A stretch of 62,475 nt of DNA from a virus (lineage: Duplodnaviria > Caudoviricetes). This document shows, one piece after another, positions 5,655-60,371 of this stretch. The position numbers and the translations under genes were made by a program. The first letter of the stretch is position 1; every line of letters begins with the position of its first letter. The notes beneath the pieces are model-generated. The model had not been told where the DNA came from. It was given only the letters and a program-made list of their open reading frames with translations, and searched no databases. The stretch is from the IMG/VR virus record IMGVR_UViG_3300048599_000246, positions 1 to 62,475 of that record; one strand, 5' to 3'.

Positions 5655-5717
5655 GCCCCGCAAACATACGGGCGCCTCCACGCGGCGCGGGGTGTAGCTG
5701 TACGCCAAGACCCGATG
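5655..5717 (+). ncRNA. HDV-like ribozyme copy 4
   Basis: P1 gccccgc/gcggggt, P2 cat.cggg/cccgatg, P3 gcc/ggc, L3 tccacgc, single-G P1.1, J4/2 CCAA. Confidence 0.75.
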
Positions 5718-5729
5718 AAGGGAGCGGAA

Positions 5730-6656
5730 ATGCAGGCAGCGAAATTGGTGAGCGCCCCGGAGGTTCTTCCCCCGGAAGCGTGCGATTTCTCGGCGTTCGT
5801 CGCCGAACGCGGACGGCCGCCGTTCCTCGGCGATCAGCCCGCACCGTGGCACTATCGGGGCTGGCTGCTCTGGTACGTGCTGCTGGCGCAGGAGACGCAT
5901 CCGGACGTGCCCGACCGTTGGGGATATTGGGCGCGAACGATGCAGGCGGGGCGGCTGCTAGACGAACCGATCCCGCGCGTCGAATTCTCGGACTCGGCCG
6001 ATGCGGCGGTGACTCGCGACCTTGAAAAGTGGATCGGCATTCTCGATGAGAAGTTCGGAAGTTGGTCCAGTCTGTATCGGTTGCTCGATTGGCTGGCCTG
6101 GGGCCTGGCGGTTTCGCAGGAAGACCCCGACCTGTCGGAAGATGTTTCCGAAAAACTGTACCGCGCGGTGGACATCGGGCCGATGCTACTTCACCCGCAC
6201 GACTACCTGGGGAATTGCCTCGCCGAGTTGAAATCGGGCGGGCATGGGAAATGGAAGAACCCAAGCGGGTTCTACCCGACGCCGCATTGCGTAGTCGAGT
6301 GCATGGTCCGGATGACGATGGCCGACAGCAAAGGCCAGGATATGCGGCGCGCGAGCGTATGCGATCCCTGCGTAGGGACGGGCCGAATGCTGCTCCACGC
6401 GAGCAACTACAGTCTGAACCTCTGGGGAATGGATATCGACCCGGTTGTGACTCGGGCCTGCCTGATAAACGGCGCATTGTATGCGCCCTGGCTGGTGCGG
6501 CCGTTTCCTCCGTCGATTCTGGAGCGGACGCCGATTGCACTTCCACCGCCGGCCCCGTTGCCGGTCCCTCCAGAATATACGCCGGTCGACGGCGCGCCAG
6601 TGTTTCGCTGTGACGACCTCGGCCGCGGCCTTCTCCCTTTCATGCTTGACGAGTAA
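5730..6656 (+). CDS. N6-adenine DNA methyltransferase-like protein (HsdM-type SAM-binding region)
   Basis: GFYPTP and DPCVGTGRMLL (motifs X/I), GMDID; no NPPY-type motif seen. Confidence 0.7.
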   Translation: MQAAKLVSAPEVLPPEACDFSAFVAERGRPPFLGDQPAPWHYRGWLLWYVLLAQETHPDVPDRWGYWARTMQAGRLLDEPIPRVEFSDSADAAVTRDLEKWIGILDEKFGSWSSLYRLLDWLAWGLAVSQEDPDLSEDVSEKLYRAVDIGPMLLHPHDYLGNCLAELKSGGHGKWKNPSGFYPTPHCVVECMVRMTMADSKGQDMRRASVCDPCVGTGRMLLHASNYSLNLWGMDIDPVVTRACLINGALYAPWLVRPFPPSILERTPIALPPPAPLPVPPEYTPVDGAPVFRCDDLGRGLLPFMLDE

Positions 6657-6756: not shown

Positions 6757-8241
6757 ATGACAACGCAATTCCTGAAGTCTTTCAAGGCGGCGCGCCGAGT
6801 GAGCACGCCGATAATCGCTATCGGTACTCCCGACCCCGCGGCGACGATACAGAATGTCGTCAGGGCGCTGAACGGTTCCGCGCCCCCGGTGATCCAGTGG
6901 GACATCGCGCGCGGCGTGACACCGTGCAATCAGCAGGGCGGTCAGGCCATCGCGGCGATCTTTGGCGACCCGAGCGTAGAGACGAACCCGGCCGAATTCC
7001 TGATGAAAGCCGCCCAACTCCCCGAGGCCGTCTGCCTGTTCTTCCACAACGCGCAGCGATACCTGAAGAATGAGGCCGTTGTGCAGGCGGTTTGGAACCT
7101 GCGCGATCAGTTCAAGGCGGATCGGCGGACATTGGTTCTACTCTGCCCCGCGGGCGGAATGGTGGTGCCGGTGGAATTGGCAAACGACGTTCTCACGCTG
7201 GACGAACCGCTCCCGACGCTCGCGGAATTGGGCGGCATCGTAAAAGAGCAGTTCGATTCAGCGGACCTCCCGGTGCCGAAACCTGAGGACGTAGAGCGCG
7301 CGACAGATGCGTTATGCGGTCTGGCCGCATTCCCGGCTGAACAGGCGACGGCCATGTCGCTCACCGCGGAAGGCCTCGACTTCGATGCCTTATGGGAGCG
7401 CAAGCGCAAGATGATTGAACAGACCCCCGGTCTGTCGGTCTGGCGTGGCGGCGAGACGTTCGACCAAATCGGCGGATGCGGAAACGTGAAGCAGTTCATG
7501 GTTGACGTACTCCGCGGCGCAGATTCCCCGCGCGGGATCGTCTTCATTGACGAAATAGAGAAAGCGGTTTCGGGGACAGGTCCGGACTTGTCCGGAGTGT
7601 CCACCGAGATGCTGGGAACGTTGCTGACGTGGATGCAGGACAACCAGGCGACGGGCGTTATTTTCATCGGGCCTCCCGGAGCGGCCAAGTCCGCCGTCGC
7701 GAAAGCGACCGGCAACACGGCGGGCGTCCCCACTATTCAGTTCGACCTGTCGGGGATGAAAGCATCGCTGGTGGGAGAAAGCGGCGCCCGGTTGCGCCAG
7801 GCGCTGAAGGTGGTCGAGGCAGTCACCCAGAACCGCACGTTGTTCGTTGCGACATGCAACTCTATCGGCGCGTTGCCCCCGGAACTCCGCAGGCGTTTCA
7901 CGTTCGGCACGTTTTTCTTCGACCTCCCGGACGCGGAGGAACGCGCGACCATCTGGGAAATCTACTGCAAAAAATTCGGCGTTGGCGGCGAACTTCCATC
8001 AGACGAAGGCTGGACCGGCGCGGAAATCCGGCAATGCTGCGACCTCGCGCGACGGTTGAAGTGTTCACTCGAACGGGCTTCGCATTTCATCGTTCCCGTC
8101 TGCCGTAGCGCAGCGGAGCAGATTGAACGACTGCGGACGCAGGCGTCCGGCAAGTTCACTAGTGCGAGTCATGACGGCCCGTATCGCTTCGAGCAGAAAC
8201 GCGCGGCGGCGACGGGGCGCGCTATCGCGATGGGGGAATAG
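6757..8241 (+). CDS. Ycf46/SpoVK-type AAA+ ATPase with swapped Walker A/B segments
   Basis: ETFDQIGG, FIDEIEK...LLTWMQD, then GPPGAAKS, VGESG, FVATCNSI..LPPEL.RRF...FFFDLP, WTGAEI. Confidence 0.85.
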   Translation: MTTQFLKSFKAARRVSTPIIAIGTPDPAATIQNVVRALNGSAPPVIQWDIARGVTPCNQQGGQAIAAIFGDPSVETNPAEFLMKAAQLPEAVCLFFHNAQRYLKNEAVVQAVWNLRDQFKADRRTLVLLCPAGGMVVPVELANDVLTLDEPLPTLAELGGIVKEQFDSADLPVPKPEDVERATDALCGLAAFPAEQATAMSLTAEGLDFDALWERKRKMIEQTPGLSVWRGGETFDQIGGCGNVKQFMVDVLRGADSPRGIVFIDEIEKAVSGTGPDLSGVSTEMLGTLLTWMQDNQATGVIFIGPPGAAKSAVAKATGNTAGVPTIQFDLSGMKASLVGESGARLRQALKVVEAVTQNRTLFVATCNSIGALPPELRRRFTFGTFFFDLPDAEERATIWEIYCKKFGVGGELPSDEGWTGAEIRQCCDLARRLKCSLERASHFIVPVCRSAAEQIERLRTQASGKFTSASHDGPYRFEQKRAAATGRAIAMGE

Positions 8242-8472: not shown

Positions 8473-9252
8473 ATGACCAGCGAATCGGCGAGCCTCTACT
8501 TCCGCGCAGGCACGAGCGATAAGGTCTACCAAATTTGGCTTGAGCCGGAACCGGACATTCCCGAAATGCGTTCGTGGCGCGTCAGGTTCGCGTATGGGCG
8601 GCGCCTTGCGACGCTGCGGTCCAATTTTAAGATCCGGCGGGCACCGTTCGCTTATGCGCGGCAGATTTACGATAAGTCCCTCTTGGAGAAACTTTCCAAG
8701 GGGTATCGCAAGGGACCGGAGTACACGAAGGGTGTGGAGATTCCTCCGCTCGAAGCAGAGCCCGCACCCACGGTTCGTAAACGGTTCGAGCCCTTCGCGC
8801 GACCTACCACGGCTTACAATCCCTTCGAGCCGGAGTCTTTGAGGGGAGACACATTGCCGACTTGCGGCTATTGCGGGCAGCCCGTCCGGCTGTTCTTCCC
8901 GGACGGAACGCGCGTTCGTGATACGCGGTATTGTTCGGCGCGTTGCGCGGGCCTCGCCGCAAAGCGCGAAGCAGCCCGGACAGAACGGGCGAAACCTACA
9001 TGGAACGCCACTTGCTCTTACTGCGGGCGCGCGGTTCGGCTCGAAGTCGGCGGCTTCCTGGATGAGACTTCCGGGAGATGGTATTGCTCCGGCGCGTGTA
9101 GGAACGCGGACCAACGACGCGGCGCGCCGATCTTCCGGAAACCTCTGAAGTCCAAACCGAAACCCGTTCCCAGGCCGGCGTATGAACCGCCGGAACCTCC
9201 AGACCCGCTCACGGTGAAACCGCGGCGGCGAATCTCGTTTAACGACGAATAG
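8473..9252 (+). CDS. WGR-domain protein with C-terminal zinc ribbons
   Basis: LYFRAGTSDKVY...FAYGRR...KLSKGY; two CxxC...YCSxxC motifs. Confidence 0.7.
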   Translation: MTSESASLYFRAGTSDKVYQIWLEPEPDIPEMRSWRVRFAYGRRLATLRSNFKIRRAPFAYARQIYDKSLLEKLSKGYRKGPEYTKGVEIPPLEAEPAPTVRKRFEPFARPTTAYNPFEPESLRGDTLPTCGYCGQPVRLFFPDGTRVRDTRYCSARCAGLAAKREAARTERAKPTWNATCSYCGRAVRLEVGGFLDETSGRWYCSGACRNADQRRGAPIFRKPLKSKPKPVPRPAYEPPEPPDPLTVKPRRRISFNDE

Positions 9253-9263: not shown

Positions 9264-9608
9264 ATGCCTTGCTGGACGATACAAGAATCGAAACTCGAAG
9301 TAAAGAATCTCAACCAGGACGTGCTGACGGCCACGCTTGAATCCCTTGGCTACGTAGTGCAGCGCAGGGGTGAACAGTTTTATGCGGACCACATGAAGCC
9401 GGGCGAACTCCGCTACACGGTGGTCTGCATGAAGGATGGCGAAATGGTCGTGCAGTTGCGCGACGGTTCGCGGGTGACGGCGGAGCGCGCAATGCGGCAG
9501 GTGAAGGTCGCCTATGGGCAGACGGCCATCCGGACGATGGCAAAACGGTTCGGGTGGCAGGTGAAGCAGGAAGACGAAACTCATTTCCAGGTGATGCGGC
9601 GGTATTGA
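9264..9608 (+). CDS. DUF1257/Ycf35-like protein
   Basis: L..TLESLGY...VKVAYG...AKRFGWQV pattern; context downstream of the Ycf46-like ATPase. Confidence 0.55.
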   Translation: MPCWTIQESKLEVKNLNQDVLTATLESLGYVVQRRGEQFYADHMKPGELRYTVVCMKDGEMVVQLRDGSRVTAERAMRQVKVAYGQTAIRTMAKRFGWQVKQEDETHFQVMRRY

Positions 9609-9618
9609 GGAGCGGACG

Positions 9619-9840
9619 ATGCAGAACGACACTATCGAAATCGAAATCATCGAAGCGGACGGCTCGTTGAAAGTGACGACGGACAAAATCAGCCAGGCGA
9701 ACCACCTGAACGCTGATGCGCTGTTGCGCGAGATGGGGCGCGTGATGGGCGGCGAGACGATCCGGACACACCGAAAGGACTCGTATGGACACGTCCACGA
9801 ACACGTCCACGAACACGAGCACGAGCATAACCATGCCTAA
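9619..9840 (+). CDS. DUF2997-like small protein with a His-rich tail
   Basis: IEIEI..DGSLKVTT; HVHEHVHEHEHEH tail; operon context. Confidence 0.55.
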   Translation: MQNDTIEIEIIEADGSLKVTTDKISQANHLNADALLREMGRVMGGETIRTHRKDSYGHVHEHVHEHEHEHNHA

Positions 9841-10363: not shown

Positions 10364-11395
10364 ATGGCTACTTCTATGATGTCGATGGAAACGACGGGCA
10401 CGATCCCCGGAAATCTGCTGACGGACCAGGGCGAGAAACCCACGGCGCTTCAGGTAACGCGCGCGGCCACGCTGACAGACAAGGCGGTTTGCGTACAGAT
10501 CGAATTGCACGGTATCGGCTGCCGGCGCACGGTTTCAACCTCACAGATCGAGGTCACCGGCGATGCAGATAAGGCGACCGACAAGACGTTGCTCGCCGCG
10601 TCCAAAAAACTGTTCGTCTCGCCGGAGTATGACCGGCTCAAAAAACTGGACGGTCGGATTCGGCAATACGTCTACGCCCAGGCGATTCAGAGTGGACTGT
10701 CGAGCGGGTTCTATTGGCTCCCGATCCCGGCGGTTCAACGGGTCCACGAGAAGCTGAAAGAGTTTCGCGCGGAACGTCAGAAAATCATTGATGAGTGGAC
10801 CACCCCGCTCGAAGGCGAAACGCAGTCGCCCTACGAGAAAGAAATCGACGCGATACAGCCGAAACTCGGCCCTTTGTTCAACCGCGGCGATTACCTCTCA
10901 GTGGACCGCGTCCGCAAGATGCACTGGTTTGAATGGTCTTACGTCTCGTTTGGCGCCCCGGAAAAACTGAAGTCCATCTCAATCGAGATGTACCAGGCGG
11001 CGCAAGACCAGGCGGCGCGGAAGGTGGAACAGGCGGCGGAACTGGCGCAGCAAGTCCTCCGGGCCAACATGCTCAAACTGGTCGAGCACCTGACGGATAA
11101 ACTCTCCGGCCGCACCGAGGACGGGAAGCGCAAGGCGTTTCGCACCGAGTCGGTCGACAAGGTGAAAACGTTCCTCACGGAGTTTCGCGAGCGGAACATC
11201 ACGGATGACGCTGAACTGGGCGCCCTGGTGGAAGATGCGAAACTGCTGATCGCTGGCGTCGACCCGGAAACGCTCCGCAAGGACGACCGGACACGCGACC
11301 TGGTAGCGGAGGGATTTTCTCAGATCCAGGCACGGCTCGACACGATGGTCGTGGACCGGCCCAGGCGAGCAATTTCGTTCAAGGACGAGGAATAG
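10364..11395 (+). CDS. DUF3150-like protein
   Basis: ASKKLF, GFYWLP, FNRGDY, NITDDAEL..LV..A pattern; AAGGAGCGGAAAA RBS. Confidence 0.6.
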   Translation: MATSMMSMETTGTIPGNLLTDQGEKPTALQVTRAATLTDKAVCVQIELHGIGCRRTVSTSQIEVTGDADKATDKTLLAASKKLFVSPEYDRLKKLDGRIRQYVYAQAIQSGLSSGFYWLPIPAVQRVHEKLKEFRAERQKIIDEWTTPLEGETQSPYEKEIDAIQPKLGPLFNRGDYLSVDRVRKMHWFEWSYVSFGAPEKLKSISIEMYQAAQDQAARKVEQAAELAQQVLRANMLKLVEHLTDKLSGRTEDGKRKAFRTESVDKVKTFLTEFRERNITDDAELGALVEDAKLLIAGVDPETLRKDDRTRDLVAEGFSQIQARLDTMVVDRPRRAISFKDEE

Positions 11396-33720: not shown

Positions 33721-35280
33721 TTACGAATTGAGAAGCGCAATTTTGTAAGGGATGTTCCCCACGTTCACTATCAGGTAGTAACCGCTCGCGGCCCCGGCAG
33801 AAGATGCGGGCGAGTCACCAAAGAAATACACAGGTCCATCAACGGAGAGTGAGGTACAAGAAAACGTCCCCGTGAGGATAGAATTCCCCGCAATGTAAGT
33901 GCTTGTGCCGTTGCAGGTAAATATGGCCGCATTGGAGTAGCCAGCCCCCGAGCCAAGCTGGATTTTGCTGCTCGGCGCTATAATCTCGACGCCTGTGGAA
34001 AGAATGTTCACAGCCGACGCAGAACCGTAGGCCAACTGCAAAGAAGAAGCGGTGAGCGTCAGGCAGTTGGATCCTGCCACGACGACAATCCCGGTGGCCG
34101 CCAAAGTCAGGCTGCACGACGCCCCGTAGGTCAGGAAGATCCCCGTAGCGATGGTCTGAAGCGTATACGATCCACTAACGATGGTGAAACCGGAACTATT
34201 GAGCGTGGCCGAGGCAGCGGTGCCGTAGGCCATTTTGATCTGACTAGACGTGGCCGTGAGGGTGTAGGATCCGCTGACCGCCGTGAGTCCCGTTGACTGG
34301 AGTTGCAGGTATGGGTCCGTGGTCGAGCCGTTGACGTACCAGAGCGTTACGGCGCCGCTGGAGAGTGTCAGCGACCGGGATGATGCGTCCGCATAGAGCC
34401 CGATGCCTGTGCTCTGGATGACGACGTAGGGCGACGACGTGAGCCCGTTCGACCCTGACGCCACACCGTAGAGGTACAAGCCGGCGTTGGTGAGCGCTAT
34501 GACGGGGTTCCCAGAGCCTCGACTCAGGTACACGTCGCCCGCGAAGATTGTCGTTCCGTAAATAAGCTTCGCCACGCCCACGTTCGCAACGTTACTGTCA
34601 ACTACTGCGTTCGCTGCAAGCGCGCCATTGGCCGCGGTGACCGCGTTGGCAGCCATCGCGTTCGCGTACACGGTGGCGTTCTTGAGGAGCGTCCCGTCGA
34701 GCGTCGCAGGGTGATTGTCCGGCGCAAGGTCGAAATGATCCGCGCCGGCCCAGGCCGTCGTCTGCCGGACGACGGTCGAGTCCAGGGCACCGTTCTGCGT
34801 GGAGATGACGTACAGGGAGTAACGGAACGTCCGGCATGTAGCGCTGTTGGCCGGGTATACCCCGCTGGATTTCATCTCGGCCCCAGGAACAGTGAGCGTG
34901 TTCCAGCGCGTCGAACTGCTCATCTCGGCGGCATAGATCATGCGGCCGGTGTAGAAACTGGATTCGTTGGCTCCCTCCTTGTCTGCCGCTGGCGTCCAGA
35001 TGGCCCCGTTCAGAGTGCCTTTCTGTACCGTGACGAAGATGCCCCGCGCGTATGCCGACGTTGGAAGGGTAAGGTGCAGGGCGTGCGGGCTCCAGGATTT
35101 CGTGCCGTCCGCGTTGACCGTGTAGTCGATGTATTGACCGTCTCCGTTGGCAACAAACTGCGCATCCGTTATCTCGGTAGCGGTCGCTTCGCCGACAGGC
35201 GTCGTGCTTCCAGAGGATGAGGAGGAGCCCTGAAACGAGGCCCCTGTATACGACAGGATGTGAACCGAGTTGTTCGCCAT
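33721..35280 (-). CDS. Tail fibre/spike protein
   Basis: Ser/Thr/Gly-rich beta repeats; C-terminal PYKIALL. Confidence 0.7.
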   Translation of the reverse strand: MANNSVHILSYTGASFQGSSSSSGSTTPVGEATATEITDAQFVANGDGQYIDYTVNADGTKSWSPHALHLTLPTSAYARGIFVTVQKGTLNGAIWTPAADKEGANESSFYTGRMIYAAEMSSSTRWNTLTVPGAEMKSSGVYPANSATCRTFRYSLYVISTQNGALDSTVVRQTTAWAGADHFDLAPDNHPATLDGTLLKNATVYANAMAANAVTAANGALAANAVVDSNVANVGVAKLIYGTTIFAGDVYLSRGSGNPVIALTNAGLYLYGVASGSNGLTSSPYVVIQSTGIGLYADASSRSLTLSSGAVTLWYVNGSTTDPYLQLQSTGLTAVSGSYTLTATSSQIKMAYGTAASATLNSSGFTIVSGSYTLQTIATGIFLTYGASCSLTLAATGIVVVAGSNCLTLTASSLQLAYGSASAVNILSTGVEIIAPSSKIQLGSGAGYSNAAIFTCNGTSTYIAGNSILTGTFSCTSLSVDGPVYFFGDSPASSAGAASGYYLIVNVGNIPYKIALLNS

Positions 35281-38200
35281 TAGTTGGTGCTCCCCATCGT
35301 GAATCCGTCACTTTTGAGCCGGAGGACTATGCTTGGAGCGCCGTCGAAATCCTCCCCGGAAGCAGGCAAAACAGTAACCGTGTTCGTATCAGTCGTATCC
35401 TTCCAAATCGTGCATCGGCGCCCAGCCCACAGGCGTTTTGCTAGGGCCTGGAGCACGATCGGTTTAGAAGAAGTGATGCAACGGATATTCTGGTCGCTTA
35501 CCTTCTGCGTGTAATCGTCATAGATTGTGACTTCTGTTCCGGACTTGCCGGCAACGTGGATTTCGCGGAGCGGAGCGTTTACGGTATCGGCGCTCCCCTC
35601 GGAATTGCAGGCGAGAACCTGGATTACCCAAGTCTGCCCAGAGAGGTTGACCACGCTCGGTTGCGCCACGGTACCGACAATAGCCGCCGAATTCGCGAGC
35701 GCTTGGGTACCACTCTCCTGGGTCGTCTGCTGCGAAATGAACACGATCACGCTGGTAGAGTCCGGCCACACGTCCCACTTTTCAGAGAGCGTAACGGAAT
35801 CGTCCGTGTTGCTTGCGATCTGCCGGAGTTGGCCGGCGCCTGTACCTTTCAGAACCCACGCGAAGTCCCCCTCGTTCTGCCCGGCCACCATGCCGTCAGG
35901 GTAAAAACTGTTTACCAGGGCATCGGTGAATCCATCCGCCGTGACAGAGGTCGGCTGCATCCGAACGAACACCAGGTCGCCCACGCCAACGATGGTCGCG
36001 AGGTCCGGCGGCTGGACGCCGAGCGAGTTCGGCCCGATGGTCAGGGTAGTTGAATCATTCGATGCGACCTTGAAGTCAACAAAATCCACATCGTCGGAAT
36101 CGTTCGCCTTGCGCAGAACGCTCACGATACGCCCGGAGTAGGCGTTCGTCGCCATTCCGGTGACGTATTGCAATTTGATCGTGGTAGCCGTGACAGCCTC
36201 GACCGGCTGACCGGCAATACCACCCTTCGTCTCGCGGAAGGGGCACACCTCCAGGTGGTCGAGGCGCGAATCGGGTGCGCCTTCGGTCTGCGTGGTGAAC
36301 GTGCTAAGAGAAGCCGAGGACTGCCCGCTTGTAAGCGCGGCCTGCCTATACCAAGGGCCATTCGCGCCGTTCCGCGAGGCATAGAGCGAACCGCCCGCGG
36401 AGCCTGTGCCCCAGGTGAGCGCGCACGAAATCTGCTGCCCGGCCGACACCGTAACACTTGTCGGCAAACCCAGCCCCGTCGTCCTACCGCCCGAATTCAG
36501 CGCAGTAGCAGCGACGTAATAGGTCCCGGCCTCCAGGCCCCCGCCAGATGCTGCTGAAGCCGTCACGGTGGGCGCAGCGATGGAAGAGAGCGCCGTAGGC
36601 GGCTCGGTCCCCTTGATCTTCACCGAGGCGATACCGGAACCATCGGCGGCCAGGTCGTACACTACCTGAACTCCGAATCCAGCCGGGCGCGCCGGGTAGG
36701 CGTCTCCGGATTTTACTGCCGCATAGGCAGGGGACCAGGGATAAGGCACGTTCGAGACGGCCGGCACACTGAGCGCGCGGTATGGTGACGGCGCGGAAGT
36801 GCCCGCGAGCCCCACGGCCTTAGTGAACACTCTCGACCTCGGAACAAGATACAGCAGCCCGGCTTGTTCGGAGTTGGTACGCGTAACGGTGACCTTCGCC
36901 GTGCCGTGGCGCGCGGTCGTTCCAGCGGCGGCCGTGGAGTCCCCGTTGTAATCGAAAGACCAGGACTCGGCTATCTGCCCGTCGCAGTCTTGATCCCAGA
37001 GCGCGCGCACGCCGGAGAACACGCCGAAGGTCGCCGGAGGATCGTACTCGACAAGAAACGTCGTGCTCGTGCCATCGTTCGTCTGCGTAACCTTGAACGC
37101 CTGCCCGTCAATGGGCTGCACGTCTCCGGGCACAAGACTCGTGACGCCTTCAACCGGGACCGTGGTAGGCGTCACATCGGGCGGCTTAGGCCCGATGGTG
37201 TAGTCATACATGCTGTCGGTTGTGGTCGTGCCCGAAATTTCCACGGACCAATCGGGATTCAACCTCCAGGACGTGATACGGAACTCGCCAGTGCCGTTCG
37301 GCATGTCGGGGTGAGTCAGCGAGGAGCACTGGCCGACTTCGGAATGCAGGCCCAGGATCGTCGTCTTGAAAGTGATCTTGCGCGCGGCGGCCCACTCTGC
37401 GGCGGTGATTCCGCCCAACTCCTCACGTAGCCGCGTGATGATGATGCGCGCGACCTGAGAACGGGTCGAGGCACCGCAGAAGTTCATCTCGCCCTGCGTG
37501 TAGACGGGCGTATTGCTGCCGCCGGCCACGGCGAGCGCGTAGTCTTCGTCCTGAATCGGGAGGTTGTCATTCTTCCATTCGGACTTGTAGGTGCCGTCCG
37601 ACTGGTAAACCTGATATTCGGAGTTCGAGAAGTTCCCGACGAGGCGGTTGAATGCCGGATGGAAAGGCTCAAGAGAAAGCGAGTTGGCAATGATGTTGCC
37701 GGTGGTGTACGCCTCTACTGCGGAGGAGTTCTCGCGAATCCCGATCTTGAGTTTGTGGTTCGAGAAAGTGAACCAGCCCAGCGCGTTGTTGAGGATGTCC
37801 TGCAGCCACTCCCTCAGCGGCTTTTGGTCACGGATGATCCCGGAAAACACGAACTGCGTTTCCGTGCCCGTGCCGAAAATCCGGGTGACGGTCATGTTGC
37901 AGATCGACGCGGCGTCGTGACAAGCCTTGACGACGAAGGCCGCCTCTTGATCTGCCGCGGACGCGCGCCAGAGCCCCCGACTGCGGAGAAAAGCGTTTAC
38001 CGCAATCCAGACGGGGTTTGTCTGACATGCGGCCCACTGGCGGGTGAGTGTATCGTCCCAATACCAACCGCCGAGGCCTGCATCAACCGTGCAGACCATC
38101 GTGTGCGTGGTGATCTCGGCGAGTTGAAGCCCCGCCGCATCGCTGCGACGGATCTCAAGGAACGCAGTCCCGCCAGCGAATACGTCGGCATACATGTTGC

Positions 38201-39713
38201 CGTCGATGTACGCTTTGGTCCAGTCGCTGCCGCGCTGGTCGCCTACTTGGCCGAGCGAGAAGTAGTGATCCGCCGTCGCGGGGAAGACGCCCGAAGACTG
38301 GAGGGCCGGGTCGGGGCCGGTCGAATGGCGAATGCCCTTGGGGTACGGGCCATGCGCGTAGGAACCGTCCAGCGTGTGCTGCGTATAGTCGCCGTGGATG
38401 TGGCTGATGGGACCTTCACAGACGACGCCAAGCCCGATGTAGAAGTCGTTTTCTTCGCGGCCGGCGGCGAGCAGGCAGGGAACCGGCAGCGCAATCCCGG
38501 TGTAGACCTCGGGGATGATTTCCGAATAGATCGAGTCATTGATGAGACTCGTTGAAGTGAGGCGAACGCCGCCCGAGGAGCCGGTGAACTTGATGTTCAC
38601 GCCCTGCGTCTCGGTCTGGATACCGCCAAACGCGCGTTTCGCGTTCGGGCACGCGGTCCCGGAGTGCGCCAGACAACCGTTCGCGGTGTTGTAGCCCTTG
38701 TCACAAGTGGCCGCGTTGGCAGACGCGAAATGAACAAGGTCGAGGCCTGCGGAGTCGCCCTTACAAGCGATACAGCCGGTGGCCGCATTTCCGTAGACCT
38801 TGCCACAGACGCGCGAGGCCTTGCGCATCGGGTACAGCAGTTTCAACTCGTAGGCCGGATCACCAACGACAAGAGAAAACGTGTCGGTTGAAGCGCCGGT
38901 CCAGGTGGTCACGTCGCCGCCCCAGATATCGAGCTTGATCCCGGTGCCGACGTGATACAGCGAGAACGACACGGTAGCGCGGTCGAGGTTGACGGCGTTC
39001 GCTAACGCGGTCATCACGCGATCTGCGTTTCCGAGGCGGAAGGTGGCCGTATCGGAGGATGAGTTTTCCTGGTTCGAGCTAAGGGCCTGCGAAATCCCGT
39101 CCCAGTCAATCAGGCGCGACTGGTAGAGTTGACCGCCAACGGTGCAGCGGCGATCCGACAGATAGATATTGTCGGTGACGGCCGAGTCCTTCACCTTGAT
39201 GTGGACCAGCGGAATAATCTCTTGAGCCTGCCCGGTCATCGCGGAAGCAAGGTCACCGGACGGAAAGCGATCTTGCGTGGAGTTGACGGCGTAGACGGGG
39301 AAGCCGCCCGTCTTGACCTCAACGAGCTTCAAACCGGACGTAGCGAGCGCGTTCGCGGCGTATTCCCAGGAGAGCGCGGCATTCTCAAACGTGACGGTGT
39401 AGGCGGTCGTTCCGGCGCCGCTTTCGTCCGGCCAGTTTAGAACGAACGGCTGGCTGGAACCCTTACGAACTACCCAAAAATCACGCAGGGCGGCGCGGCG
39501 TTTCGGAGTCAAGCGGACGCGAACGCTGAAGACGCGAGCGCCCGAGCCCATGACAAATCGCTGGCTGATCTTGCGATTCGCGGCGCGGTTCTCGATGACG
39601 TGTTCAACGGTGGGGATCTCGTGGACATACGACAGTCCCCATTCCGGAACAAGCGGGAACGTCCCCGAGACGGACACTTCGGGCACAGGGATACTACCGA
39701 GGTAATCAGGCAT
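35280..39713 (-). CDS. Tail tip/central fibre protein (gpJ-like hub)
   Basis: 1477 aa after TMP and Dit; TNPVWI, PLREWLQDILNN motifs. Confidence 0.8.
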   Translation of the reverse strand: MPDYLGSIPVPEVSVSGTFPLVPEWGLSYVHEIPTVEHVIENRAANRKISQRFVMGSGARVFSVRVRLTPKRRAALRDFWVVRKGSSQPFVLNWPDESGAGTTAYTVTFENAALSWEYAANALATSGLKLVEVKTGGFPVYAVNSTQDRFPSGDLASAMTGQAQEIIPLVHIKVKDSAVTDNIYLSDRRCTVGGQLYQSRLIDWDGISQALSSNQENSSSDTATFRLGNADRVMTALANAVNLDRATVSFSLYHVGTGIKLDIWGGDVTTWTGASTDTFSLVVGDPAYELKLLYPMRKASRVCGKVYGNAATGCIACKGDSAGLDLVHFASANAATCDKGYNTANGCLAHSGTACPNAKRAFGGIQTETQGVNIKFTGSSGGVRLTSTSLINDSIYSEIIPEVYTGIALPVPCLLAAGREENDFYIGLGVVCEGPISHIHGDYTQHTLDGSYAHGPYPKGIRHSTGPDPALQSSGVFPATADHYFSLGQVGDQRGSDWTKAYIDGNMYADVFAGGTAFLEIRRSDAAGLQLAEITTHTMVCTVDAGLGGWYWDDTLTRQWAACQTNPVWIAVNAFLRSRGLWRASAADQEAAFVVKACHDAASICNMTVTRIFGTGTETQFVFSGIIRDQKPLREWLQDILNNALGWFTFSNHKLKIGIRENSSAVEAYTTGNIIANSLSLEPFHPAFNRLVGNFSNSEYQVYQSDGTYKSEWKNDNLPIQDEDYALAVAGGSNTPVYTQGEMNFCGASTRSQVARIIITRLREELGGITAAEWAAARKITFKTTILGLHSEVGQCSSLTHPDMPNGTGEFRITSWRLNPDWSVEISGTTTTDSMYDYTIGPKPPDVTPTTVPVEGVTSLVPGDVQPIDGQAFKVTQTNDGTSTTFLVEYDPPATFGVFSGVRALWDQDCDGQIAESWSFDYNGDSTAAAGTTARHGTAKVTVTRTNSEQAGLLYLVPRSRVFTKAVGLAGTSAPSPYRALSVPAVSNVPYPWSPAYAAVKSGDAYPARPAGFGVQVVYDLAADGSGIASVKIKGTEPPTALSSIAAPTVTASAASGGGLEAGTYYVAATALNSGGRTTGLGLPTSVTVSAGQQISCALTWGTGSAGGSLYASRNGANGPWYRQAALTSGQSSASLSTFTTQTEGAPDSRLDHLEVCPFRETKGGIAGQPVEAVTATTIKLQYVTGMATNAYSGRIVSVLRKANDSDDVDFVDFKVASNDSTTLTIGPNSLGVQPPDLATIVGVGDLVFVRMQPTSVTADGFTDALVNSFYPDGMVAGQNEGDFAWVLKGTGAGQLRQIASNTDDSVTLSEKWDVWPDSTSVIVFISQQTTQESGTQALANSAAIVGTVAQPSVVNLSGQTWVIQVLACNSEGSADTVNAPLREIHVAGKSGTEVTIYDDYTQKVSDQNIRCITSSKPIVLQALAKRLWAGRRCTIWKDTTDTNTVTVLPASGEDFDGAPSIVLRLKSDGFTMGSTN

Positions 39714-39722: not shown

Positions 39723-40076
39723 TTATGAGATTTCTATGAGGGACAGGTTCACCTGGCCGCGAGCGACGTTGATCGTCTCCGCCCAGGGCGAATTGAACTG
39801 GACCGGATGTTGAATACCGTCCGGCCCAGTAAAAAAGAACGGGACCGTCGTGCCGTGCGCTTCATAGAACGTCCGGAGCGTCGCGAGTATTGTCGGCCGC
39901 AACTTGAGCGTCACGGAATAGGCCACGCGGTCAGTTGAGACGAGCGCGTTTGACTGAAGCTCGCCATTGCGGTAGCGGGTTTCTTCGACAACCCAGGAAT
40001 GCGATTCGATAACCGAAGCGCAGAGAAGGGAAGGGAAGGAATCCGCTACCGTCGCGACAGCAATAGAACCGGGCAT
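39723..40076 (-). CDS. Distal tail protein (gpM/DUF2460-like)
   Basis: Position after TMP; L.TFYEAHG...PFFF..P. Confidence 0.7.
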   Translation of the reverse strand: MPGSIAVATVADSFPSLLCASVIESHSWVVEETRYRNGELQSNALVSTDRVAYSVTLKLRPTILATLRTFYEAHGTTVPFFFTGPDGIQHPVQFNSPWAETINVARGQVNLSLIEIS

Positions 40077-43000
40077 TACGAGATCACCGTAGAGGGCGAC
40101 AGGGCAGAGGTTCGCAAGCTGTTGCGGCTCTTGCTGGCCGCGAGGCCCTTCGCCGTCACCACTTGGCCGTTGGAAGCCATGATCTGCGCAATTGGCGTGC
40201 TGTCAAGGTTCACGGTGATAGCCTGGTTGCTGCTGCCCCCGCTTGTCGCCCCGAACGTAGTCACGCCGCCGGAATACCCACTCGACGCCGTGGCGAGGCT
40301 GGAAGCGTAAGCGTTCGCCTTGCCGTTCGCGCCGAAGGCGTTTTGGTAGACCGACCCACCGGATTCTGACATCGACGCAGCGCCTACCTGATCCGTCCAG
40401 ATGTTGCTGGTGCCGGACTTGATCGTCTGCGAGTAAAGCTGCACGATGTCTCGAACCTGAGCGGATCGAATCGCCAGGTCCATGTCACCGCCGTAAGACT
40501 GTTTTGCGATCTGGACGATTTGCTGCAAGACGCCCTTGTCTTTGATGTCGACATGGTAGAGCGCCTTGATTTTGTCGTGCGCGTCATCCTGCGGGTTCTT
40601 CCCGCCGAACAACGTTCGCAGTCCGGCGGCCACCAGACCGACGCCGGCGCCGATGGCTGCACCGAGGGGACCGCCGAAGCGGGAGCCCACAATCGCGCCG
40701 CCGCCCGCGGCCATCATCATCCCGCTCAGCCCGCCTCGAGCGATGCCAGCCGCAGCGAGCCCCAGGCCTGCGCCGCCCAACAAGCCCAATTGCGTTCCGT
40801 GGATCATGAGTTGCGAGCCGAGCATCGCGCCGCCGCCGATGGATGACGTAAGATTCCCGGCGCCCTTACCGCCGCCCATGATGCCCTTTAGCATCAAGAG
40901 GCCGCCCGTCGTGGCAAGCATTTGCGGAAGCGCGGCCTGGAGGTTCTTCGCGGACAAACCGCCATTGAGGATCCCGGCCAGGCCGCCCGCCCCTGCGGTC
41001 TGCGACCCACCGCCGCCAAGCGCTGTTCCGCCCGCCGCCTGGCTCATCGGGATGTAACCACCGAGCCCGAGCGAAAGCATCTCGGCACTCGGGGCAGCGG
41101 TCGAACCGCCGCCGGCCGCGGAGAACACATAGGGACTGCCCGTACCGCCGCCCCAGCCGCCTCCGCCGAAGATGCCCCCGCCGCCGGATGAGCCGGAGCC
41201 TCTGCCAGAACCACCAGCGCCGAGCCCCAGGAGCCCGCCCAGGCTGCCGAATAGACTCCCCCCGCCGGATGCACGCCCTCCGCGCGAAGTCGCGCCAGCG
41301 GGCGCGGATTGGCCGTAAAGCAACTGCATGAGCATCGCGGCAATCTGCGAACTCATGATCTCCTTGATTGCCGTAAGCATCGCAACTTTGAAGAAGTTTG
41401 CGATGGAGCCGAGGACGGACTGAGACTTCGTGAACATCGAATCGAGCACGCCTTCGGCGGAAGATTTCAGCGAGTTGAAAGTTGACTGAATTTGATCCCG
41501 GACGACGGACGCCTGTTGAATGGTCCCGGCCATGCGGGCTTTGTCGGCGTCGGCGTCGGCCTTGTCTTCGACGGCCTGTTTCTCGACGCGGCGCGCTTCG
41601 TTGATGGCATCAAGCCGGGCGTCAAGTTCCGCGGACATCTCGGGGCGGGCGATCCGGAGCCAGGCCAGATACTCGGTTTCGGCGTTCTTGCGCCGGTCGA
41701 TAGCAGCGATCTGAAGTTCTTCCTCCTTCCGGATGGCCTCGACTTCGATCTGCACTTCCTGGCCGGCGACGGCGAGTTTTTGCTGCACCGTGGTAGCGTT
41801 CACAAGCTGAAGCGATTGGAGGCGGGCGTCCTTCTCGCGCTGGACAGCGGAGATTTGCTCCGCGTACACCTTCTCGGCGGTTTCGTCTTCGAGCTTCAGC
41901 GTGTCGTCCTTGTAGTCACGAGACGCTTGCCACTGTTCCTCTGCCCGCTTTTCGGTGGACTCAAACCAGATGGTTTGCCCCTGCCGCTGATCGCCCCGTT
42001 TGTTGCTTACTGGCAGCGAGACGACGGACGCCTTGAATTCCGTGTTGCCGTAGATTTTGTTCAGTTCTTCGGCCACCTTCGGAAGCTCCTGCCTGGCCTT
42101 GACGATTTCCTTGTCGAGCAGGTGCGCGGTCGCGGCGTCGATTTCGCGGACGGCCTTCGTGGTCTTGCCGTACAGTTCCAGCATCTTCGTGCGGTCGATG
42201 AGCACCTTCGCGATACCGGAACTTTCTTGCGCCAACGAGTTCATGTAATACTCGTGCGCGGACTTCTCGGCGGACGCGATCTTCGCCGCGGCCTCTTGCT
42301 CCTTTTTCAGTTGCCCCGGAGTCTTGACGTGCGCGTGGTCGCCGGGGAACTCAGCAACGATCGGTTTGTCACCCTCGGTCCCCATGAGCCGGTTCCAGGA
42401 GGCCCCGTTCGCGTCGGCCACTTGACTACTGAAAATCCGTTGAATCTCGGCCTGGTTGAACCCGGACTTTTCGAGCTCGCCTTTCGATGCGCCGCGGCGC
42501 ATCATCCCCAGGAGTTGCTGTTTCTTCTGCGCTTCAGCGACGGCGGCGTCCTGTTCACCCATTTTCTGGTAGCCCTGCCATACCAGGGTTCCCACGATGG
42601 CGGTGCCCATTATGGCTGCCGTGATCGGGTTCGCGGCAAGCGTGGTAATGAGGATCCTCAGGGCGTTCGTTACCAGTGTGATGTGGCTGAGGAGTTGACT
42701 CGTCACGAAGATCGCGGCAAGTTCGCCGACCATCTTCCCGACAAGCTGCAAGGATTCGGCGTGCCGGTTCGTCCAGTTGACGGCATCGCGCATGTCGGAG
42801 ATGAACGACTCCAGCGTCGGCTGCAATGTTTCGCCGATCTGCTCCTGAAGTTCATGGAACTCGCGTTTCAGCGCGCCGGTCTGCGCTTCGGCCTTGTTGG
42901 CCTGGGAATTCCATGCGCCGGAGACGGTAGAGGCTTTGTCGAGCACCAGGTTGAAACGGAGTTGCGCCTTCTCGGTATCGGTGAGTTGGTAACCGAGTTT

Positions 43001-43594
43001 CTTTTCCGTCGCTGCGACTTTCTCGGTGAAGTTGACGTGGAGGTTGGCCTGCCGGAGCATCCTCTCCGTGCCAAACTCGGCAGAATTCACCATGACCTCG
43101 AACGCTTGGCCCGCGGTGAGGTCGGATTGTGCGGAGAGGTCCTTCGCCATTTTGGCGGCCACGATGGCTTTGCGTAGATCGAACTGCGAAACAATCATCC
43201 GCTGCACGACCCGCATTGCGTCTTCGTTGGAGTAGCCGAGATCATGAACGGCCTTGACCTGGGCCATCACGGCGTCGGTATTCAACCCGTTTGATCTCGC
43301 CATGCTGCGCGTGACAGCGTCCATCTTGTCAACGGACGCACCGGCCTGAAGACTTTGCATTGCCATCTGCTTCATCCACCCGAGAGCGCCTTCGATGGCA
43401 TTGGAAAGCAGGTTTGCACTGGTTACTCCGGCGGTGAGTCCGGGGAGTATGCCGTCCATGCCGCGGTTGATCTGCCCCGATGCCTTGTCGGCGGAGTCGC
43501 CCATCCGGTCGAAGTTCTTTTCGGTGCGTTCCTGGCGCTGGTTTGCCTCGTCGCTGTCGAGAACGATTCGATAGGTGATTCGCTGATCCGGCAT
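40076..43594 (-). CDS. Tape measure protein
   Basis: 1172 aa helical/coiled-coil with Gly-rich C-terminal region; follows the chaperones. Confidence 0.9.
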   Translation of the reverse strand: MPDQRITYRIVLDSDEANQRQERTEKNFDRMGDSADKASGQINRGMDGILPGLTAGVTSANLLSNAIEGALGWMKQMAMQSLQAGASVDKMDAVTRSMARSNGLNTDAVMAQVKAVHDLGYSNEDAMRVVQRMIVSQFDLRKAIVAAKMAKDLSAQSDLTAGQAFEVMVNSAEFGTERMLRQANLHVNFTEKVAATEKKLGYQLTDTEKAQLRFNLVLDKASTVSGAWNSQANKAEAQTGALKREFHELQEQIGETLQPTLESFISDMRDAVNWTNRHAESLQLVGKMVGELAAIFVTSQLLSHITLVTNALRILITTLAANPITAAIMGTAIVGTLVWQGYQKMGEQDAAVAEAQKKQQLLGMMRRGASKGELEKSGFNQAEIQRIFSSQVADANGASWNRLMGTEGDKPIVAEFPGDHAHVKTPGQLKKEQEAAAKIASAEKSAHEYYMNSLAQESSGIAKVLIDRTKMLELYGKTTKAVREIDAATAHLLDKEIVKARQELPKVAEELNKIYGNTEFKASVVSLPVSNKRGDQRQGQTIWFESTEKRAEEQWQASRDYKDDTLKLEDETAEKVYAEQISAVQREKDARLQSLQLVNATTVQQKLAVAGQEVQIEVEAIRKEEELQIAAIDRRKNAETEYLAWLRIARPEMSAELDARLDAINEARRVEKQAVEDKADADADKARMAGTIQQASVVRDQIQSTFNSLKSSAEGVLDSMFTKSQSVLGSIANFFKVAMLTAIKEIMSSQIAAMLMQLLYGQSAPAGATSRGGRASGGGSLFGSLGGLLGLGAGGSGRGSGSSGGGGIFGGGGWGGGTGSPYVFSAAGGGSTAAPSAEMLSLGLGGYIPMSQAAGGTALGGGGSQTAGAGGLAGILNGGLSAKNLQAALPQMLATTGGLLMLKGIMGGGKGAGNLTSSIGGGAMLGSQLMIHGTQLGLLGGAGLGLAAAGIARGGLSGMMMAAGGGAIVGSRFGGPLGAAIGAGVGLVAAGLRTLFGGKNPQDDAHDKIKALYHVDIKDKGVLQQIVQIAKQSYGGDMDLAIRSAQVRDIVQLYSQTIKSGTSNIWTDQVGAASMSESGGSVYQNAFGANGKANAYASSLATASSGYSGGVTTFGATSGGSSNQAITVNLDSTPIAQIMASNGQVVTAKGLAASKSRNSLRTSALSPSTVIS

Positions 43595-59897: not shown

Positions 59898-60371
59898 TCA
59901 GGACTTGAGCCTTTGCCCACCGCATGGCGTTGCGGCACTCTTGGCCGCCGGGTAATCGCGCGGCCGGTTCTGCCTCGAAAGCGACTGAAGCAGCCGTCCG
60001 ACAGCCGGATCCGTCTGGTAGATCACAACGTACTCTTTGGAGCGTTCCGTGCCTGGGCGTTCGCCGCGCGCCGGGTCCCAAACGATCTTGCCGTCGAGAC
60101 AGACGACGCAATGTTCCCACCCTTCGGGGAAGTCAGAACCCGCCGACACGGCGCCGAGCGAGTAGCCCGCCGGTTTGCCCCTGGTGTAATCGTTCTCCTC
60201 ATCGAAGCGAACACCCAGGGCGGTAAACCCGAGCGGTTTCAGAAGGTCGAGCATGTCCGCATACCAGGTAGCCGGAGCGATCCGGTCCACCTGCTCAAGC
60301 GGTACCTCGAGGATTGATGCGACGCAGGCGGCGACGCAATTGTCCCGGCGCGTCTGCCGAACGGGCGTCAT
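59898..60371 (-). CDS. Hypothetical protein, possible papain-fold (C...H...D)
   Basis: Q...DNCVAACVASILE...HCVV...VWDP. Confidence 0.6.
   Translation of the reverse strand: MTPVRQTRRDNCVAACVASILEVPLEQVDRIAPATWYADMLDLLKPLGFTALGVRFDEENDYTRGKPAGYSLGAVSAGSDFPEGWEHCVVCLDGKIVWDPARGERPGTERSKEYVVIYQTDPAVGRLLQSLSRQNRPRDYPAAKSAATPCGGQRLKS

Follow-up and report, generated by a model that had tools for sequence, protein, structure and literature searches.

The window analysed here, a viral DNA stretch of 62,475 nucleotides taken at its full length, is a phage genome with terminal repeats that encodes a portal, a terminase, a head protein and DnaB. In the vicinity of ERF and exonuclease genes it carries a single open frame for a two-domain AAA+ ATPase (P0001), whose parts and neighbours are listed in Table 1. 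The first domain, D1, is degenerate: it has no P-loop lysine (GTPDPAAT at residues 23-30) and no DE (FFHNA at 94-98). The HMM of the C block also matches the N domain of L100. The second domain passes the Pfam threshold for AAA proteins and displays a Walker A motif after b1, a Walker B motif of the hhhhDE type, sensor 1 and candidate arginine fingers in the second region of homology.

Table 1. The ATPase gene, its parts and the neighbouring genes (nucleotide positions in the window; aa, residues of the encoded protein).
Feature	Position (nt)	Strand	Basis or remarks
N6-methylase-like gene	5715-6656		conserved beside the ATPase gene in 1/80 loci, not a partner
Two-domain AAA+ ATPase gene	6757-8241	+	494 aa; AGGAG 12 nt upstream of ATG
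D1, degenerate AAA-like N-terminal alpha/beta domain, aa 1-222	6757-7422	+	AF2 secondary structure, Foldseek, shared with canonical relatives
Linker, aa 223-257: GGETFDQIGG motif and helix a0 (242-253), up to PRG	7423-7527	+	translation, AF2
Block B, aa 258-297: b3 (260-264), pore-loop-2 region (275-280), a3 (281-295, LLTWMQD)	7528-7647	+	BLASTP, AF2, block HMMs
Walker B D265-E266, in block B	7549-7554	+	
Block A, aa 298-360: b1 (299-304), Walker A, a1, b2 (326-329), pore loop 1, a2 (341-357)	7648-7836	+	Pfam, PDB matches, AF2
Walker A GPPGAAKS, aa 305-312	7669-7692	+	
Pore loop 1 LVG, aa 338-340	7768-7776	+	
b4, aa 361-368, ending in sensor-1 N368 (nt 7858-7860)	7837-7860	+	conservation, covariation with b3
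RRR, aa 378-380, candidate arginine fingers, second region of homology	7888-7896	+	conservation
Helical lid, aa 393-463, with GWTGAEI 418-424 (nt 8008-8028)	7933-8145	+	alignment, AF2
C-terminal tail RAIAMGE, aa 488-494	8218-8238	+	weak copy of the tail motif common to neighbouring proteins; R488 148/150
Zinc-ribbon-like gene, CxxC pairs, 259 aa, ends PRRRISFNDE	8473-9252	+	beside the ATPase gene in 2/80 loci, not a partner
DUF1257-like gene, 114 aa	9264-9608	+	conserved neighbour, 66/80 viral loci by iterated HMM
Small gene, 73 aa, His-rich end	9619-9840	+	31/80 loci; no Pfam match
DUF3150-like gene, 343 aa, P0275, ends RRAISFKDEE	10364-11395	+	79/80 viral loci

The unusual feature of this protein is the order of its motifs. 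In translation, the chain of the second domain runs PRG-(IVFIDEIEK...LLTWMQD)-(GVIFIGPPGAAKS...VGESG...VEAV)-FVATCN, with PRG at residues 258-260, IVFIDEIEK at 261-269, LLTWMQD at 289-295, GVIFIGPPGAAKS at 300-312, VGESG at 339-343, VEAV at 353-356 and FVATCN at 363-368, followed by LPPELRRRF at 373-381. The Walker B strand-helix block (block B) thus lies N-terminal to the Walker A block (block A), and the motifs appear as Walker B (265), Walker A (305-312) and sensor 1 (368), contrary to the AAA+ order, in which block B comes after block A. The N domain, the linker, b4-b5 and the lid are unmoved. The order N-B-A-C cannot be obtained by rotating N-A-B-C, so the exchange differs from a circular permutation. 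The original prediction had claimed that the two blocks are exchanged while both stay in frame and intact, and translation, profiles and BLASTP all bear this out. The order that it took as established can be read directly in translated canonical relatives, e.g. PKGMALIGPPGTGKS...VGQSE...AMAPCVVMLDEVDKAF...LTHMQE...LFWVASAN.

Profile and sequence alignments also locate the two blocks. Pfam AAA (PF00004) matches with 58.1 bits against a cut-off of 21.2 (E 1.7e-15), split into three stretches, the best of which places residues 301-354 on profile positions 1-54; in the relative P0262, residues 263-309, which lie N-terminal to the P-loop, correspond to PF00004 positions 58-106, the Walker B region. 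The family phrog_8638 matches the window protein at E 1.3e-46 (160.4 bits) in four stretches, a clear family match that is not collinear. The three canonical relatives (P0272, P0273 and P0274), which are Ycf46-like phage ATPases of that family (Mycobacterium phage Corndog gp96, Rhizobium phage vB_RleS_L338C L338C_050 and Aeromonas phage HJ05_65), each match phrog_8638 end to end in a single stretch (1-553, 1-566 and 6-532). BLASTP of the window protein against a canonical relative gave one collinear HSP (q105-408) with a 38-residue query gap opposite the canonical Walker B block, and a second, out-of-order HSP (q261-377 to s358-469, E 8.7e-4) that locates the Walker B block of the query.

A window that is a single metagenomic viral contig could hold a chimera or a local misassembly across nucleotides 7520-7840, with the true gene in the usual order. 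However, block HMMs returned the arrangement N-linker-B-A-C in all 160 related loci (80 of 80 viral loci from IMG/VR and 80 of 80 genomic loci from MAGs), which stem from many independent assemblies, and the same order is present in the complete genome of the cultured phage Tunturi_3. As identities are only 40-70%, these cannot be copies of one error, and from such sequence comparisons an assembly artefact is effectively refuted. A large protein family has conserved the exchange.

The order was also kept in 12 of 12 aligned homologues. A regular expression placed Walker A before Walker B at the canonical position in none of the 270 proteins retrieved, with 84 of them giving incomplete or extra patterns. 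Regarding the size of the family, 2336 matches were obtained at E<=1e-3 among 8000 scored candidates, and a further search (6742 matches, of which the best 150 were inspected) yielded 1281 cluster representatives at 50% identity with E<=1e-30. We counted residue conservation over 150 diverse members. E266, G308, K311 and N368 are invariant in 150/150, and position 312 is S or T in all of them. In the Walker B region, D265 is kept in 148/150 and K269 in 146/150; G305 of Walker A is kept in 149/150, V339 and G340 of pore loop 1 in 137/150 and 149/150, and the arginine-finger candidates R379 and R380 in 134/150 and 149/150, respectively. These counts show strong purifying selection on the predicted catalytic residues. 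Five of seven long relatives carry inteins, located at the P-loop and directly behind sensor 1; highly conserved sites are common homing sites for inteins. The GAAKS form of Walker A, flagged earlier as a variant, is real in the window protein but is not a trait of the family, as 70 of the 150 members have G at position 310 and 62 have A; it is a minor variant of a sub-clade. Judged by sequence, the swapped order with intact catalytic residues spans a large family of viruses of soil bacteria.

To place the swap in the history of the family, we compared swapped and canonical proteins. All 52 canonical-order ORFs carrying the N domain (49 from 77 loci, together with P0272-P0274) are N-A-B-C. BLASTP alignments of the window protein to canonical relatives start at q19 or q105, so that the degenerate N-terminal domain of phrog_8638 is found in the window protein as well. 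We built a tree from 47 canonical rows and 50 swapped ones, using block HMMs made from the swapped family and sampling 50 of 333 swapped sequences. One branch, with an SH-aLRT of 100, divides all swapped from all canonical rows, and one change accounts for the distribution. The tree is unrooted, with the midpoint used for drawing only, and does not by itself show in which direction the change ran. The swapped order could then be the older one, with the usual order regained in the canonical phage relatives, or several separate swaps could have occurred. Both are very improbable: every other AAA+ protein matched (through the Pfam AAA profile, PDB matches and NCBIfam families) has Walker A before Walker B, which makes the canonical order the outgroup state, and a single change suffices on the tree. 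The swap therefore apparently arose once, from an ancestor of canonical order. Most economically, the A-B unit would have undergone an internal tandem duplication, after which the first A and the last B were lost. No duplication intermediates were found among the ORFs encoded at the 77 canonical loci; two A-B-A-B ORFs considered as such were rejected, being unrelated two-domain AAA proteins of 728-739 aa.

The effect of the swap on the fold was assessed by structure prediction and covariation. The AF2 model built with 150 sequences reached a pLDDT of 95.9 and a pTM of 0.90, with exactly five core strands at residues 260-264, 299-304, 326-329, 361-367 and 385-387. A model from a 12-sequence alignment was dropped for the core, where its pLDDT lay below 50 (residues 223-390). 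Covariation, at a modest effective depth (Meff 240) and with invariant catalytic residues unable to covary, ranked the pair 260-357 first among 35,511 couplings; this pair is the junction from a2 to b3, which is covalent in canonical proteins. The highest summed strand-pair couplings, b3-b4, b1-b5, b3-b2 and b1-b4, are the four neighbour pairs of a sheet ordered 5-1-4-3-2, with b3-b2 weak (best pair at rank 183, near the non-neighbour b3-b1 at 149). More specifically, b3 and b4 pair through 262-363, 261-361 and 267-365, helix a3 shares five of the top 100 pairs with a2 and four with pore loop 1, and the linker covaries with the P-loop and a1 (241-310, 238-313 and 248-318). Since overlapping sequences underlie both, the model and the couplings are not independent data. 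The usual sheet order suggested by covariation, together with the secondary structure and confidence of the model, indicates that the chain is rewired while the fold is probably kept. The rewired P-loop topology that had been proposed for this protein thus holds for chain connectivity, in that b3-a3 precedes b1-a1-b2-a2, but not for a new active-site geometry, as the evidence suggests an ordinary AAA+ arrangement.

The early DEIEK could instead lie outside the active site, in a protein of different fold or in a pseudo-ATPase that binds ATP without hydrolysing it and keeps the motif for another reason. The failure of the shallow-alignment model in the core, the missing second glycine of Walker A and the moderate similarity to known structures are in keeping with this. 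Over about 560-590 columns, Foldseek aligned the full-length protein to D1-D2 of p97/Cdc48/Rix7/Drg1 in the PDB, and it found 'ycf46' phage proteins in BFVD (TMq 0.61-0.69), with TM-scores to canonical proteins of only 0.5-0.7 and large rmsd; domain orientation could explain these moderate scores, which is not in itself proof of the same core. Nevertheless, we regard either reading as quite unlikely. The near-invariant D265 and E266 occur beside the invariant K311 and N368, and there is no other hhhhDE after a2, the next strand being the sensor-1 strand LFVATCN. Furthermore, covariation sets strand 260-264 next to 361-367 and residue 260 next to the end of a2, and the deep AF2 model is confident across 258-300, with block pLDDT values of 83-98. 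Neither the model nor the covariation gives any signal that would separate the early DEIEK from the active site. A complex prediction with three copies of residues 223-494 and three ATP scored 0.01 against a mark of 0.42, from which we draw no verdict either way.

Among known proteins, classic-clade type II AAA proteins (p97/VCP/Cdc48, Rix7, Drg1/Afg2) are the best PDB fold matches for both domains, and the Walker A block also finds its best PDB matches by sequence among them, at E of about 1e-9. The lid motif of classic AAA proteins, G.[ST]GA[DE]I, is present in the window protein as GWTGAEI. In contrast to the two collinear domains and N-terminal substrate domains of classic type II proteins, D1 of the window protein is dead and D2 is permuted. 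Like the window protein, the three phrog_8638 phage ATPases combine a dead AAA-like N domain with a classic AAA domain. They share the signatures DE[IV][DE]K...LT.MQ[ED], VG.SE and LP.E.LR, with an identity of 23-27% across most of the chain, but their order is N-A-B-C instead of N-B-A-C. Circularly permuted GTPases of the YlqF/YawG family are P-loop NTPases with the order G4-G5-G1-G2-G3 and an intact fold. They resemble the present case in the non-standard chain order of their nucleotide-binding motifs and differ in being circular and of the GTPase class; here, two adjacent internal segments of an ASCE/AAA+ protein are swapped and the domain termini are unchanged. The HK97 capsid fold of Bordetella phage BPP-1 is described as a non-circular permutation (PMC3863775), likewise a natural one of a conserved fold in a phage protein, although it concerns a structural protein and not an enzyme active site. 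Our literature search, which covered few subscription journals, found no published ATPase of the AAA+ or ASCE type in which Walker B precedes Walker A.

A cultured counterpart is gp103 of Tunturiibacter phage Tunturi_3 (PP885686), a phage of an acidobacterium. This protein, annotated only as 'ATPase', shows the swapped order and is 39.8% identical to the window protein over 97% of the query; a term search of the main text of the phage description (PMC11924767) returned neither 'ATPase' nor 'AAA'. The partner genes match as well, with gp102 being DUF1257-like and gp96 matching the DUF3150-like protein at 4.6e-87. In the viral loci that carry them (79/80 and 66/80), the DUF3150-like and DUF1257-like genes are on the same strand as the ATPase gene. 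P0275 resembles DUF3150 clusters with an Atlas feature score of 0.97 and a structure TM of 0.81, and has no Pfam or PHROG match by HMMER. For the DUF1257-like protein, one relative passes the Pfam DUF1257 cut-off (29.4 versus 22.2 bits), while the window copy reaches only E 0.064. Neighbours of the canonical phrog_8638 ATPases show weak similarity to both partners, Corndog gp95 to the DUF3150-like HMM (1.3e-4) and HJ05_67 and L338C_052 to the DUF1257-like HMM. An assignment of the 73-aa neighbour to DUF2997 was dropped, as Pfam gave it no support. Our literature search found no functional information on DUF3150, DUF1257 or DUF2997. Members of the module carry a tail motif of the form R-x-I-S/T/D-F/L-D/E, e.g. 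RRAISFKDEE.

Taken together, we put at roughly 80% the probability that the gene encodes a classic-clade phage AAA+ ATPase of the phrog_8638 lineage, composed of a dead domain and an active permuted domain, with fold and active site kept and a role in an early module. A block of about 40 residues (b3 with Walker B, pore loop 2 and a3) has traded places with a block of about 63 residues that used to precede this segment (b1 with Walker A, a1, b2, pore loop 1 and a2). The result is a natural non-circular permutation in which the chain ends have not moved and the chain runs a0-b3-a3-b1-a1-b2-a2-b4. Each new connection follows the sheet direction of its predecessor, so that both the usual active site and the usual order 5-1-4-3-2 of the sheet can be kept. 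The predicted active site consists of K311/S312, D265/E266 and N368, together with R379/R380 from the neighbouring subunit; by analogy with the family, these arginine fingers would act in trans. Solely on the basis of family membership, the protein is predicted to form a ring, to hydrolyse ATP and to pull substrate through the LVG pore loop. It would act early in infection, its co-inherited partners being the DUF1257-like and DUF3150-like proteins, in the neighbourhood of genes for replication and recombination.

A further reading, which we hold to be rather doubtful, is that the swap is not neutral. With the P-loop strand joined directly to a3 and pore loop 2, and the sensor-1 strand joined directly to a2, signalling from the nucleotide to the pore would be altered. 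The early module would have the permuted ATPase as its motor, and the shared tail would be a tag by which the ATPase docks to or recognises the members. If true, the module would be a phage machine for tag-directed remodelling, based on an AAA+ topology not seen before.

Few molecular machines have been studied as thoroughly as AAA+ motors, and to our knowledge, as well as from our literature search, the order of Walker A, Walker B and sensor 1 has so far been treated as fixed. Swapped proteins are easily mis-annotated or dismissed as broken, because collinear profiles fragment them, here into the three Pfam and four PHROG stretches, and shallow structure prediction failed. With every catalytic residue kept and two core segments swapped, the family offers a natural experiment that sets chain connectivity against spatial arrangement, both in folding and in the coupling of hydrolysis to pore-loop movement, and it opens a second question, the origin of non-circular permutations in enzymes. 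Due to the existence of a cultured pair with the swapped gene, Tunturi_3 on Tunturiibacter psychrotolerans, the family is testable at the bench.

The AAA+ ATPase of the window (P0001), preceded by AGGAG 12 nt upstream of its ATG, carries its Walker B block ahead of its Walker A block. The motif strings and the order that the original prediction had read in this ORF agree exactly with the translation. The chain runs from GGETFDQIGG...PRG into IVFIDEIEK (261-269)...LLTWMQD (289-295)-NQATG, then into the Walker A part, VIFIGPPGAAKS (301-312)...VGESG (339-343)...VEAV-TQNRT, and finally into LFVATCN (362-368)...LPPELRRRF. Pfam AAA (PF00004) matches P0001 with 58.1 bits (threshold 21.2), split over three stretches, the best of which covers aa 301-354 (profile positions 1-54). 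The block ahead of the P-loop in the relative P0262 (263-309) corresponds to positions 58-106, the Walker B region. PDB sequence matches (p97/VCP, Cdc48, VAT) align P0001 aa 299-355 with their Walker A segments and resume at aa 347-430 (sensor-1 and lid), leaving Walker B unaligned in between. Taken as a whole, we are nearly certain (probability of about 0.97) that the swap is real and conserved.

The family is large. A word-indexed search with 8000 scored candidates returned 2336 homologues at E<=1e-3, the best 120 of which are all about 490-525 aa long and 56-70% identical over their full length. Exhaustive phmmer against 1.84 billion representatives gave 6742 matches at E<=1e-3 (1281 at E<=1e-30), the top 150 of which were examined. 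The swapped order is kept in all members of a 12-sequence alignment (12/12). Comparison with further homologues bore this out: block HMMs for the N domain, the linker, Walker B (B, 258-297), Walker A (A, 298-360) and the b4-b5-lid part (C, 361-470) recovered N-link-B-A-C in 80/80 IMG/VR loci, in 80/80 genome-contig loci and in a protein with 39.8% identity, gp103 of Tunturi_3, a cultured phage of Tunturiibacter. Misassembly as the source of the swap is excluded because independent assemblies, 40-70% identical, and an isolate genome share it.

The alignment of 150 sequences (50%-identity cluster representatives, mean column identity 27%) has invariant columns at G188, E266, G308, K311, N368 and G474. 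In the Walker B and Walker A blocks, D265 is kept in 148 of 150, K269 in 146, G305 in 149 and S/T312 in 150; the counts at the candidate arginine fingers are 134 (R379) and 149 (R380), and those at pore loop 1 are 137 (V339) and 149 (G340). Acidobacteriota MAGs account for 69 of the 80 best genome loci and Armatimonadota for 6, with the other 5 elsewhere; several of the loci are on megabase contigs, which suggests that they are prophages. One acidobacterial MAG holds four swapped copies on four contigs (L176, L180, L181, L193), two of them longer than 2 Mb, suggesting several related prophages in one genome.

To place the swap, relatives in canonical order were compared. With P0001 as tblastn query, 62 of 50,697 phage records were matched, and query cover exceeded 80% in Tunturi_3 only. 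Three more distant matches, translated (Rhizobium phage L338C_050, Corndog gp96 and Aeromonas phage HJ05_65), share the two-domain architecture in the ordinary order, as in PKG-MALIGPPGTGKS...VGQSE...AMAPC-VVMLDEVDKAF...LTHMQE...-LFWVASAN. Their match to phrog_8638 is one unbroken stretch in each case, end to end; that of P0001 falls into four. BLASTP of P0001 against L338C_050 produced one collinear HSP (q105-408) with a 38-residue gap facing the canonical Walker B block, and a second (q261-377 to s358-469, E 8.7e-4) that aligns the query Walker B block out of order. Viral contigs were scanned again with the canonical alignment as query, which yielded 77 loci; these and the three phage proteins supplied 52 ORFs in canonical order that have an N domain, all following N-A-B-C (38 exactly so, 13 as N-link-A-B-C and one with an extra C match inside N), and the block HMMs found B-A order in 0/52. 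In the same scan, an ATPase ORF at L139:3986-4900 ends directly after block A (304 aa, N-link-A); gene splitting, an insertion or a frameshift may account for this.

Phylogeny was reconstructed by maximum likelihood (IQ-TREE quick search, LG+G4) from the N, A, B and C blocks, which were aligned separately and then concatenated. The tree has 47 canonical rows (the 52 minus five identical ones) and 50 swapped ones, namely P0001, Tunturi_3 and every seventh sequence from a family set of 332. A single branch with an SH-aLRT of 100 parts the swapped from the canonical proteins, and one change is needed on this unrooted tree. We take its direction as canonical to swapped, since all other AAA+ proteins matched here have the canonical order. 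The simplest route would be permutation by duplication, in which a unit xxG-A-B was duplicated in tandem and the first A and the last B were then lost. Two features fit this route. One is a P/A-x-G turn ahead of each block, seen as PRG at b3 and as A-x-G at b1 (G300 in 141/150); the other is that each block junction lies at the start of a hydrophobic strand. No duplication intermediate was found among the ORFs of the 77 canonical loci, for which reason we put the route forward as a hypothesis.

The original prediction also spoke of a rewired P-loop topology. This holds for the chain connectivity, but the three-dimensional site is probably unchanged. The core sheet of ASCE ATPases has the strand order 5-1-4-3-2. 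In the swapped chain, the b3-a3-b1 connection would span two places along the sheet in the same direction as the canonical b3-a3-b4, and b2-a2-b4 would do so in the same direction as b2-a2-b3. Taking that topology as given, neither crossover handedness nor the helix side of the sheet need change, and the swap appears compatible with 5-1-4-3-2 on paper. AlphaFold2 failed in the core with 12 sequences; with the 150-sequence alignment it reached a pLDDT of 95.9 and a pTM of 0.90. In the latter model, the core has exactly five strands, separated by helices as expected (E260-264, H267-274, H281-295, E299-304, H311-322, E326-329, H341-357, E361-367, H375-380 and E385-387, then lid helices).

Contacts were further assessed by mean-field direct-coupling analysis of aa 223-494 in 332 family sequences (Meff 240). 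Its depth is modest, invariant residues give no signal in it, and it shares sequences with the AlphaFold2 input. The top coupling of 35,511 is 260-357 (score 6.33, background SD 0.29), which joins the start of b3 to the end of a2, covalent neighbours in canonical AAA+ proteins. Couplings also connect b3 with b4 (267-365, rank 18; 262-363, rank 24; 261-361, rank 56), a3 with a2 (including 292-354, 296-354 and 288-346), a3 or pore loop 2 with pore loop 1 (284-343, 282-335, 284-332), b1 with the stretch after b4 (304-370, rank 28) and b1 with b5 (303-388, rank 49). When the top three couplings were summed for each of the ten strand pairs, the highest sums fell to b3-b4 (4.76), b1-b5 (3.59), b3-b2 (2.91) and b1-b4 (2.83), exactly the four neighbour pairs of 5-1-4-3-2 (by chance 1 in 210); the strongest individual b3-b2 coupling stands only at rank 183, near the non-neighbour b3-b1 at 149. 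The best Foldseek matches in the PDB are two-domain classic AAA proteins (p97, Cdc48, Rix7, Drg1; about 560-590 columns, TMq up to 0.54), and the best among viral models are phage proteins named 'ycf46' (TMq 0.61-0.69). Fold and catalysis have likely been retained.

Residues 1-222 form an alpha/beta domain whose end is helical and lid-like; the domain can be aligned with D1 of type II AAA proteins and lacks both the P-loop lysine and the DE pair. In the canonical relative L100 (3965-5623), the C-block HMM also matches N-domain aa 135-211, which gives sequence-level support for a decayed AAA domain. We read aa 1-222 as a dead AAA-like domain that the canonical relatives also have, and aa 223-494 as the putative active, permuted AAA domain. 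The lid carries GWTGAEI (418-424), which we take to fit the classic-clade lid motif without the sensor-2 arginine, and the conserved pore loop [LIFY]-V-G (338-340) would suit a substrate-threading motor. Seven of the 150 top representatives are long (650-900 aa). Five of them (P0124, P0137, P0182, P0240, P0262) contain Pfam Intein_splicing or Hint domains, four of these five with LAGLIDADG, HNH or other homing-endonuclease domains; the break lies at the P-loop (about K311) in P0137 and P0262 and directly after sensor-1 N368 in P0124, P0182 and P0240. P0230 has LAGLIDADG alone, with a break near aa 429, and Pfam found no intein domain in P0269.

The window, an IMG/VR virus record, has direct terminal repeats and encodes a portal, a large terminase, a major head protein, a minor tail protein and a DnaB-like helicase. 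The gene for the ATPase belongs to the rightward early arm; nearby are an N6-methylase-like gene and genes for an Erf-type annealing protein and a PD-(D/E)XK exonuclease. Conservation of its neighbours was followed by iterated HMM searches.

Swapped ATPase and neighbouring genes in the window, with their occurrence in viral loci
Feature	Position	Strand	Remark
ATPase P0001	6757-8241	+	single open frame, 494 aa
DUF1257-like	9264-9608	same as ATPase	in 66/80 viral loci
Small gene, 73 aa	9619-9840	+	in 31/80 viral loci
DUF3150-like	10364-11395	same as ATPase	in 79/80 viral loci

The commonest gene order is ATPase, DUF1257-like, small gene, DUF3150-like. The DUF3150 assignment is based on the ESM Atlas (feature score 0.97, structure TM 0.81), and HMMER gave no Pfam match for this window protein; that of DUF1257 is based on one relative with 29.4 bits against a Pfam cut-off of 22.2, the others matching weakly. 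Both partner HMMs also have weak matches next to the canonical-order ATPase genes of the phages Corndog, L338C and HJ05, so the partner module probably predates the swap. Several module proteins share a tail, R-x-[IVLFM]-x-[FLVIM]-[DENQ], within their last 16 residues; in the window it reads PRRRISFNDE (ORF 8473-9252), RRAISFKDEE (DUF3150-like) and, more weakly, RAIAMGE on the ATPase (8218-8238). Across loci L006-L085 it occurs in 52/79 DUF3150-like proteins, 24/80 ATPases and 0/67 DUF1257-like proteins, and in 37/2399 of all other mechanical ORFs of at least 100 aa, many of these 37 being small and directly adjoining the module (five in L032). The shared tail may serve in docking or recognition.

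The conserved 73-aa protein ends in a histidine-rich run, HVHEHVHEHEHEHNHA, and may bind metal. The label 'HNH endonuclease' of Tunturi_3 gp96 (L001:9699-10658) looks doubtful because the protein matches the DUF3150-like HMM at 4.6e-87. Elsewhere in the window, a 423-aa protein (60368-61639, -) is ParB-like in its N-terminal part (aa 4-146; phrog_723, 2.3e-35) and resembles phosphoadenosine-phosphosulfate reductase further on (aa 156-386; phrog_424, 1.9e-24), and two ORFs of the structural arm (35280-39713 and 40076-43594, both -; 1477 and 1172 aa) have no PHROG match at 1e-5.

Circularly permuted GTPases are a known parallel to such a rearrangement. Another is the HK97 fold in phage BPP-1, described as a non-circular permutation (PMC3863775). 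Nothing in our literature searches described an AAA+ or other ASCE ATPase whose Walker B comes before Walker A, and the ATPase goes unmentioned in the main text of the Tunturi_3 paper (PMC11924767). No publication describing a function of the module was found either. Family membership tentatively suggests that the ATPase is a ring, powered by ATP, that would act on a partner protein early in infection by remodelling or unfolding it. We see in it an ordinary AAA+ active site whose chain order has no known precedent and is conserved across a very large family of phages.
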